From positions 6,414 to 70,413 of the forward strand of contig CAZEKF010000005.1 of assembly GCA_964512765.1 (NCBI GenBank): a stretch of 64,000 bases of DNA. The letters run 5' to 3'. A program made the position numbers and the translations under genes. The stretch is from an uncultured Methanosarcinales archaeon (GTDB lineage Archaea; Nanobdellota; Nanobdellia; Woesearchaeales; GW2011-AR15). Positions 3,243 through 35,733 of the stretch are shown piece after piece. Below the pieces are notes generated by a model. The model did not search any database and was not told the DNA's origin. It saw only the letters and a list, made by a program, of their open reading frames with translations. Position 1 is the stretch's first letter; every line of letters starts with the position of its first letter.

Positions 3243-3396
3243 AGCCTCCGAAGGGACTTGAACCCTCGACCTGCTGATATCGTGACAAACTTTTCTTAAG
3301 TGGGCTTGAGCCGCAGGCGAAACCCACGAGTTTTGCTCAAGCTTTTCTTAAAAGCTTGTTACAAGTCAGCCGCTATAGCCACTAAGCCACGGAGGC
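3243..3396 (-). tRNA. tRNA-Thr(UGU) with an 81-nt intron at 37/38 (~3279-3359)
   Basis: GCCTCCG TG GCTTAGTGGCTATAGC G GCTGA CTTGTA[81 nt]A TCAGC AGGTC GAGGG TTCAAGT CCCTT CGGAGGC U. The discriminator is U. Confidence 0.85.
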
Positions 3397-3454
3397 GTGT
3401 TTTAGCCTACGGGATCCGAAAATCAAACTGTTTGATTTTTGTAGCCACGGAGGC
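3397..3454 (-). repeat. 58-nt leader that starts with an exact 12-nt copy of the tRNA-Thr 5' end (GCCTCCGTGGCT), followed by a hairpin
   Basis: agccacggaggc occurs at 3443-3454 and again at 3385-3396. Between them lies the hairpin AAAATCAA-ACAGT-TTGATTTT. A TATA-like ATATATAAATA (about 3476-3488) is centred about 28 nt upstream of the first copy. Confidence 0.6.
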
Positions 3455-35390: not shown

Positions 35391-35549
35391 GGGGCTATGG
35401 TGTAGCTTGGCCAACGAAAATCTCGATTTTCGAGGTTGCGTTGAAGCAACTATCACTCAACGTTTGGGGCGTTGCAACCCCAGTTCAAATAGACTCACTG
35501 TCGTTCGTAACTTCCAAAGACAGGGTCTTTGAAAGTCTGGGTAGCCCCA
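35391..35549 (+). tRNA. tRNA-Pro(UGG) with two non-canonical introns (38 nt in the D-loop at 35415-35452, and 46 nt in the T-loop at 35491-35536) and none at 37/38
   Basis: GGGGCTA TG GTGT AGCTTGGCCAA[38]TCAC T CAACG TTTGGGG CGTTG CAAC CCCAG TTCAAAT[46]CTGGG TAGCCCC A. The T-loop TTCAAA pairs with the intron 3' end TTTGAA. TATA-like ATATTTAAAATA lies about 30 nt upstream. Confidence 0.8.
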
Positions 35550-35640
35550 TTTCTTTTATTTATTGTTCTTCGGACTACTTAACGCAGTTAATGTAGTCCT
35601 TAATCTGTTTTCCCTCAAGGCTTTTTCTAAAAGGCTTGAT

Positions 35641-35653
35641 CTGGGTAACCCCA
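35641..35653 (+). repeat. degenerate second copy of the tRNA-Pro 3' exon (CTGGGTAaCCCCA), preceded by a hairpin
   Basis: TCTGGGTAGCCCCATTTCTTTT (35536-35557) resembles TCTGGGTAACCCCATTCTTTCTTTT (35640 onward). Each copy is preceded by a hairpin (CAAAGAC/GTCTTTG, or TCAAGGCTTTT/AAAAGGCTTGA at 35615-39) and a short spacer. Confidence 0.55.
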
Positions 35654-35733
35654 TTCTTTCTTTTTTATTTTTCATGTTTTATTCTCTATTACTCATAGTT
35701 AAATATTTAAATAGTCAAGATTTCCAAGTCGAC

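Follow-up and report, generated by a model that had tools for sequence, protein, structure and literature searches.

The apparent second 3′ exon of tRNA-Pro in this archaeal genome very probably arose through the action of a mobile element, small and non-coding, and is not part of a tRNA. The element, which we call E, occupies 70 nt on the plus strand of the window (positions 35569-35638; the window being the whole 64,000-nt stretch of DNA that was analyzed) and lies between two copies of a tRNA-Pro repeat. A census of the genome under study (G000; other G numbers denote its relatives), made with BLAST and an HMM of the shared module, found 18 copies of E, and its structure is supported by covariation. 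E encodes no protein, lacks inverted ends, produces duplications of 12-94 nt, and seems to be a hairpin repeat of an undescribed kind. What was first noticed would be a scar rather than a novel type of tRNA gene.

The gene concerned, tRNA-Pro(UGG), runs from 35391 to 35549 on the plus strand and comprises three exons (35391-35414, 35453-35490, and 35537-35549). Its exon structure is supported by ARAGORN, which called tRNA-Pro(tgg) once the D-loop intron (35415-35452, containing a CGAAAATC..GATTTTCG mini-hairpin) and the T-loop intron (35491-35536) had been removed; the unspliced gene is missed by standard tools. Orthologues with and without these introns are both present among the relatives and, the mini-hairpin excepted, neither intron of tRNA-Pro(UGG) is repeated elsewhere. 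The initial annotation, made from the letters of the window, had noticed a variant repeat of the 3′ exon with one change in the acceptor strand, and this repeat was confirmed. The exon CTGGGTAGCCCCA at 35537-35549 and its copy CTGGGTAACCCCA at 35641-35653 differ by a single G>A substitution, and alignment showed that the repeat is longer than had been claimed, covering ~33 nt of exon and T-rich trailer. The proximal repeat (B, 35536-35568, plus strand) consists of the functional 3′ exon and its T-rich trailer, and it stops exactly where E starts. The distal repeat (B′, 35640-35673, plus strand) consists of the variant exon copy and a trailer-like T-rich stretch, and it continues into the native spacer ahead of the next gene, which encodes L37Ae. 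By our own arithmetic, the chance expectation for a 13-mer to recur with at most one mismatch inside ~150 nt is roughly 1e-4, and the variant 13-mer is unique in the assembly (1.53 Mb in 44 contigs, 32% G+C, 97% complete). A second copy of the 3′ end also follows the tRNA-Pro genes of four relatives (G001, G002, G011, and G012), where the spacers are E-like or degenerate and the second copies carry uncompensated changes that are different in each. The tRNA-Pro(UGG)/L37Ae spacer of G007 contains neither E nor a second 3′-end copy. The single RNA contig obtained from the sequencing runs covers the L37Ae gene only, and the contigs of the source sample obtained from these runs end at the repeat and showed neither an empty allele of the site nor a joint; assemblies break at E.

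The copy of E behind tRNA-Pro(UGG) belongs to subfamily A and has four parts: a left end of TTC (on the 35569 side), hairpin 1 (35572-35599, GGACTAC..GTAGTCC), a linker (35600-35615) terminating in GTTTTCCCT, and hairpin 2 (35616-35638, CAAGGC-loop-GGCTTG), in which a G·G mismatch is conserved. Two of the structures had been proposed from the letters and both are real, namely the 12-bp stem of hairpin 1, which has one bulged T, and a hairpin with CTTGAT at its end, our hairpin 2, that adjoins the exon copy at 35641. At least four subfamilies can be distinguished, which differ in hairpin 1 and have the linker and hairpin 2 in common. The loop of hairpin 2 accepts nested inserts of 25-110 nt, and an identical insert was found with different types of hairpin 1. 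Among 20 copies of E from 11 genomes, compensatory changes were observed at 8 of the 12 pairs of hairpin 1 and at 3 of the 9 pairs of hairpin 2, and one pair of hairpin 2 was found in all four Watson-Crick combinations (CAANGC vs. GGNTTG). In the same set, paired cells amounted to 93%, the observed covariation score was reached by none of 500 shuffles, and slid controls collapsed. E has no ORF and no terminal inverted repeats, its left end (TTCGGAC..) and right end (..GGCTTG) not being inverted copies of each other. An autonomous long form was not found in G000 or G004, in which every match to the left-end pattern of subfamily A has hairpin 2 within ~100 nt. When the region was compared with Rfam, only tRNAs passed at gathering scores, with no match to E, and relaxing the E-value to 10 produced one match on the region, a chance hit to a lncRNA.

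The arrangement at tRNA-Pro is a recurrent one. Every copy of E with a recognizable duplication, more than 35 in the ~12 genomes inspected, showed the same order of an intact gene end (B), E, and then a copy of the gene end (B′), with the intact gene always on the left-end side of the element. Within G000, the genes with duplicated ends include six for tRNAs (Pro-UGG, Pro-GGG, Val-GAC, Val-UAC, Val-CAC, and Ala), and protein genes are affected at the 3′ end of ribonucleotide reductase (RNR), the 3′ end of a gene for an HExxH protein, and the 5′ end of another ORF. Targets in the relatives include the 5′ ends of enolase, GroEL, dCMP deaminase, and tRNA-Pro(CGG) and the 3′ end of phosphomannomutase. 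Repeat length ranges from 12 to 94 nt across loci. The left junction of E is precise, with a possible TTC overlap of 0-3 nt, and the right junction carries 0-6 extra bases. In some tRNA cases, a GTGGGAA at the right junction pairs with TTCCC of the linker and therefore belongs to the element there; overall, selection of right-junction bases to extend hairpin 2 was not significant (p = 0.27). At tRNA targets, the outer copy begins in the 3′ half of the T-loop or at position 61. At three loci (L008, L018, and L037), the left end of E recurs directly behind the outer copy for its first 8-14 nt, as far as the loop of hairpin 1. Orientation followed a rule: sense E, the strand with a T5 run, was seen behind genes only, and antisense E in 5′ leaders and tRNA introns. 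Essential genes are spared by E, an intact copy always being kept, and the duplicated gene ends next to it mislead both tRNA and gene callers.

Of the 19 other genomes in the family, 13 carried E, and the 21 genomes that represent the order's other families all lacked it. Public matches to a degenerate E pattern came from metagenome-assembled genomes (MAGs) of Candidatus Woesearchaeota, and a search of viral contigs with this pattern yielded no match. One match in a bacterial genome lay inside an ABC-ATPase gene and was discarded as chance. Six of the 18 copies in G000 lie between genes with no clear duplication, and another three lie antisense within tRNA introns. The complete genome of G004 holds at least nine copies, one of which has a duplication identical at 54 of 56 positions. 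The copies group by genome and not by target: in G000, hairpin 1 plus linker (53 nt) is 98% identical between the Pro-UGG and Val-GAC copies, identity between the modules of Pro-UGG and Pro-GGG is 90% across 87 nt, and in G005 a private variant of hairpin 2 is common to copies at different sites. At the 3′ end of RNR, E and a 24-nt duplication are found in G000, G005, and G007, and the site is cleanly single-copy in eight other genomes, namely G002, G003, and G004, which belong to the genus of G000, and five more. Comparisons of this kind indicate that the sites of E are insertions rather than ancient structure. The boundary of the 24-nt duplication is identical in the three lineages and the E copies themselves differ, a pattern that is consistent neither with insertion occurring simply and independently in each nor with a simple, recent transfer.

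One precise junction just outside the gene, one ragged junction 12-94 nt back, and strict polarity indicate that the duplications arise by a polar process. From this junction anatomy, we infer that E would insert with its left junction made first, just outside the gene and often with 0-3 nt of TTC microhomology, and that its right junction would be made 12-94 nt back, such that the intervening stretch would come to lie on both sides of E. Two routes were graded the most likely, target-primed copying from an antisense E template and recombination of a small cassette bearing E plus the gene end. The left tRNA-Pro copy, still joined to its gene, would be the one in use, and the right copy, with its G>A change, a relic. 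An att-like duplication or decaying duplicate, as offered in the initial annotation, was right in substance, the copy being the repeat on the distal flank of a hairpin element that occurs many times.

Searches for an enzyme returned no match to a reverse transcriptase (RVT_1) in G000, G004, G005, G007, G008, and G009, none to Cas1 in G000, G004, G005, G007, and G009, and none to TnpB (PF07282) in G000, the one genome searched for it. Y1 transposases, DDE_Tnp_1, and the LAGLIDADG family of the window did not co-occur with E, and the complete, E-bearing G004 contains none of these three, nor RVT_1 or Cas1. Y1_Tnp is absent from the E-positive G004 and G005 and abundant in the E-negative G014, and the DDE_Tnp_1 gene of G000 is single-copy and unrelated. 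Each genome has one strong Phage_integrase match, which we take to be XerA, plus weaker small ones. Short integrase-like genes (169-187 aa) occur near E-bearing tRNA genes in G000 (C13:4936-5445) and G007 (C4:44208-44771), in conserved housekeeping synteny with two AAA-type ATPase genes. Their protein looks domesticated, the usual HxxR box reading HILHAY, and no third repeat copy marking a larger island was found near the inspected integrase-like genes. No mobility enzyme that was sought explains the insertions of E; one acting in trans is conceivable. As a separate observation, G000 carries two IS200-type Y1 transposase genes that are truncated at contig ends (C27:11275-11487 and C38:29-217). 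A hairpin-bearing end sequence (..AGGGGATTATAAGGGG..CCCCTTAT) lies 3′ of the gene on C38 and recurs beside tRNA-Ser on C18, and this repeat family is unrelated to E.

The coding targets carry a further signal. According to a conservative script, B and B′ of these targets show 37 synonymous and 16 non-synonymous codon differences, counts in which some 5′-UTR triplets were miscounted as non-synonymous and one locus was skipped; counting by hand with 5′-UTR positions removed gave about 44 synonymous vs. 11 non-synonymous. Random decay would be expected to yield 19% synonymous differences (p about 1e-15), and a mixture of one selected and one free copy 32% (p = 2e-8). Synonymous to non-synonymous ratios in individual cases were 11:2 for phosphomannomutase (30 codons), 7:1 for enolase, where a TCT/AGT serine switch is among the differences, and 6:1 for the gene at L024. 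Since the coding copies differ mostly at synonymous sites, the outer copy is not simply a decaying duplicate, and the origin of the two copies lies in two working alleles. Plain target-site duplication would predict neutral decay of the outer copy, unlike what is seen in these cases. Mutagenesis of the DGR type was also considered and rejected, as differences between the aligned copies are not adenine-specific. The simplest account of the coding copies is duplication in place followed by homologous exchange; exchange with related strains, its tracts ending at the element or at heterology, would produce the two-allele signal. Alternatively, the signal might stem from cassettes that carry their own gene end.

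The latter alternative, replacement of gene ends by a cassette, is possible but should be held only tentatively. A small and perhaps circular DNA bearing E and a private version of the last 12-94 nt of a gene would recombine with the homologous gene end at its left edge, so that the version from the cassette takes over as the working end and the host end is pushed downstream; the outer copy in the window would then be the original tRNA-Pro end. Such a history would account for the strict polarity and for the synonymous differences, as well as for the identical 24-nt boundary at RNR in three lineages and for the terminator or ribosome-binding site that the proximal copy supplies for itself at L005 and L035. 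It would likewise explain phosphomannomutase, of which the working C-terminus enters hairpin 1 and the outer copy retains a native-like end. However, a cassette is at odds with the grouping of E copies by genome instead of target, and with the behavior of the gene-end copies, which go with their own genome and not with E, both at the HExxH gene (G000 vs. G004, C15 vs. L010) and at the RNR site. Several duplications are, moreover, perfect or near-perfect (24/24 at L081, 23/23 at L022, and 17/17 at L025), and the elements neither contain nor adjoin an integrase; a small integrase-like gene is found close to two copies and forms part of a conserved housekeeping synteny.

Two of the coding loci, both in G009, deserve description in their own right. 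At L036 (G009:C117, minus orientation, 384-512), the phosphomannomutase ORF terminates within hairpin 1 of E (..VLSLIRST*). The arms of this hairpin are changed in a compensating manner (GTTCTAC/GTAGAAC), and the same DNA is both coding sequence and hairpin. At L035 (G009:C36), 5′ of enolase, the displaced start region comprises a ribosome-binding site, an ATG, and about 20 codons. The displaced frame is open across the antisense element, and its TGA stop overlaps the real start codon (ATGTCTGA), an overlap that may suit translational coupling, with chance as the alternative.

It is unlikely that E serves chiefly as a cis-acting signal in RNA or DNA, such as a terminator or 3′-end module, that has been domesticated and is maintained by selection and whose duplications are old side products. 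Conservation of the structure across genera with compensatory changes would be expected of such a signal, and the orientation of E is suggestive as well, since all copies behind genes are sense and antisense copies occur only where transcription must pass, in 5′ leaders and tRNA introns. The same gene ends are also occupied in different genera. On the other hand, presence at orthologous sites is patchy within one genus, a single genome holds near-identical copies, the loop of hairpin 2 can contain other, nested hairpins, and E is missing from most genes; conservation of the hairpins would be equally predicted for the substrate of a recombinase or transposase. A role as a cis-acting signal is compatible with the mobile-element explanation.

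In archaea, the bulge-helix-bulge (BHB) motif at splice junctions consists of two 3-nt bulges with a 4-bp helix between them, and a split tRNA of the Nanoarchaeum or Caldivirga type requires a separate 5′ piece that can pair, through its 3′ flank, with the leader of the 3′ piece. The initial annotation had suggested that the second copy could serve as a trans-spliced or alternative isoacceptor exon, in which case read-through or separate transcripts would pair through the hairpin region and joining of the T-loop to the copy by the splicing endonuclease would give a variant tRNA-Pro. The module does resemble the 3′ end of an intron, as had been noted: the T-loop introns of this clade end in hairpin-CTTG-(G)TGAA-AGT, and the module presents a hairpin, CTTG, and a TTGA that could pair with the TCAA of a T-loop. 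That part of the description stands, and the working exon that was read into it is unsupported. Also in its favor, tRNA-Pro(GGG), which is encoded on a different contig, has a T-loop intron that starts with sequence complementary to hairpin 2, and DPANN-type endonucleases are described as tolerant of relaxed motifs (PMC3239211). However, exact and degenerate searches of the 97%-complete assembly for a tRNA 5′ fragment starting with GGGGTTA found this motif only in coding or non-tRNA contexts, and sequence complementary to the leader of the copy was found only as antisense E in the T-loop introns of the complete tRNA-Ser(GGA) and tRNA-Pro(GGG) genes. No such piece is needed to complete the tRNA set, as an intact tRNA-Pro(UGG) lies directly upstream and tRNA-Pro(GGG) is present on C21. 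The junction, too, is no BHB: the copy is preceded by a 4-bp TTGA/TCAA helix with a 1-nt bulge only and lacks a 3-nt bulge. The real T-loop intron of tRNA-Pro(UGG) has TTCA/TGAA and an AGT bulge beside the T-stem. With the resident 5′ strand, the variant exon CTGGGTAACCCCA would form a C:A mismatch at acceptor position 5:68, and second copies in relatives often have T-stem strands that are unable to pair with their gene (L004, L011, L012, and C13). The sense strand of E also carries a T5 run, in hairpin 2, which is likely an archaeal terminator and stands ahead of the variant copy. Given these observations and an equal layout at the 3′ and 5′ ends of protein genes, where a tRNA function is irrelevant, a functional alternative or trans-spliced exon is highly improbable.

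As a mobile element, E shares features with several known systems. Prophage e14 and phage 21 integrate at icd and bring a replacement 3′ end for the gene. E resembles them in its direct repeats over the gene end, in the mainly synonymous differences of the displaced copy, and in its strict polarity; unlike these integrase-encoding elements with their defined att core, it has no linked integrase, the insert is tiny, and the copies follow the host genome. The BHB tRNA introns of Thermoproteales are said to transpose, related introns having reportedly been found in different tRNA genes by Fujishima and colleagues in 2010. A composite T-loop intron common to tRNA-Ser(GGA) and tRNA-Pro(GGG), and to several genera, is similar in this respect; unlike those introns as described, the E family also occurs outside tRNA genes with flanking duplications. 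Like a MITE, E is small, non-coding, and multi-copy, with presence or absence at orthologous sites, but MITEs have terminal inverted repeats and a short duplication of fixed length, whereas E has no inverted repeats and its duplications vary from 12 to 94 nt. With SINEs and non-LTR retroposons, E has in common its non-autonomous nature, the combination of a precise junction and a ragged one with extra bases, and target duplications of variable length. Unlike SINEs, it has no A-rich tail, no truncated copies were seen, and RVT_1 was absent from the six genomes searched. REP/REPIN-RAYT and IS200/IS605-derived elements are likewise short, protein-less hairpins of conserved structure, including an extrahelical base, but they are Y1-dependent and make no target duplication, in contrast to E, which duplicates its target and does not co-occur with Y1.

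Long direct repeats of variable length (8-514 bp), with no accepted mechanism, are known from IS1634 and IS1549 (PMC2266710, citing Vilei 1999 and Plikaytis 1998). The target duplications of E are similarly long and variable; these insertion sequences measure 1.5-2 kb, belong to the DDE class, and have terminal inverted repeats, whereas a DDE gene and such repeats are both absent from E. Integration of a recombinase-encoding element of 1.8 kb into an archaeal tRNA gene duplicates part of the gene and creates an additional intron (Sugahara et al. 2012, PMC3293823). In this case, as in att duplications of the SSV/pNOB8 type and at tRNA-Pro(UGG), a partial tRNA copy flanks the insert, the gene is functional, and a link to introns or tRNA fragments has been proposed. 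Unlike the 1.8-kb element with its recombinase, E is 70 nt long, has no ORF, leaves repeats of 12-94 nt, and is also found at the 3′ and 5′ ends of protein genes.

An earlier model of intron gain rests on that recombinase-encoding element (PMC3293823), and the route by which tRNA introns arrive is still open according to a 2026 preprint on tRNA genes of Asgard archaea (10.64898/2026.10.13.758758). Sequences of E also form tRNA introns in G000, and this makes the arrival of archaeal tRNA introns directly testable. The window itself contains a second copy of E, of subfamily D (3300-3358, plus strand; hairpin 1 at 3300-3327 and hairpin 2 at 3338-3358), which lies antisense in the 37/38 intron of the minus-strand tRNA-Thr(UGU) gene (3243-3396). 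This intron is largely antisense E, and its 5′ end is the right end of the element (CAAGC..). The composite T-loop intron of tRNA-Ser(GGA) and tRNA-Pro(GGG) consists of antisense E plus a short repeat of T-loop relic, and introns in tRNA genes of three other genera look to be built in the same way. In G009, the T-loop intron of tRNA-Pro(UGG) contains little beyond a hairpin-2-like stem and GTGAAAGT. Within the family, two genomes have no intron in the T-loop of tRNA-Pro(UGG), and three inserts unrelated to one another occupy this loop elsewhere. Taken together, the sequences suggest that E-type elements may feed the gain of tRNA introns.

A more specific proposal, which we offer as speculative and somewhat doubtful, is that hairpin elements constitute a route to non-canonical tRNA introns in DPANN archaea, through polar, long-duplication insertion that needs no transposase of their own. 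Insertion would proceed by target-primed copying or by hairpin-directed recombination with host enzymes, and the element would land in or near the T-loop, a near-palindrome (TTCRAA), such that pairing between the duplicated T-loop bases could supply the helical part of a splice motif. From then on, the insert would act as a T-loop intron and the outer copy as the 3′ exon. The module behind tRNA-Pro(UGG) would represent an arrested first step of this series.

Duplication was also evident at the other end of a tRNA gene. A 5′-end duplicate at tRNA-Thr had been reported from the letters of the window, and it proved to be an exact 12-nt duplication, GCCTCCGTGGCT, on the minus strand (3385-3454, with copies at 3443-3454 and 3385-3396). 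The two copies flank a 46-nt insert with a AAAATCAAAC..GTTTGATTTT mini-hairpin. Mini-hairpins of this type were found at least 10 times, in D-loop introns of tRNA genes and nested in the hairpin 2 loops of E. They are related to a family of the form CGAAAATC-n3-GATTTTCG and similar, which occurs in tRNA D-loop introns, in arrays, and in hairpin 2 loops of E, its sites including 35415-35452 in the window and C4:42705, C11:44823, C11:54153, C14:10890-10940, and C5:83352 in G000.

The tRNA genes of G000 are otherwise unusual in that many have two or three introns at non-canonical sites. ARAGORN called 22 tRNA genes, and the Rfam tRNA model found 13 above its cut-off (16 at E ≤ 0.01). An estimated number of ~40 or more is expected, of which these counts are about half or fewer. 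Multiple non-canonical introns thus cause the automatically predicted tRNA complement of such MAGs to be badly underestimated. Finally, the tRNA-Pro(GGG) gene of G000 (C21:4607-4802, L065) has an apparent A53-U61 pair instead of the nearly universal G53-C61. The relic copy 3′ of this gene retains CTGGG, the strand found in the T-stem of Pro(UGG), which suggests that the two Pro genes derive from a duplicated ancestor that already carried E.
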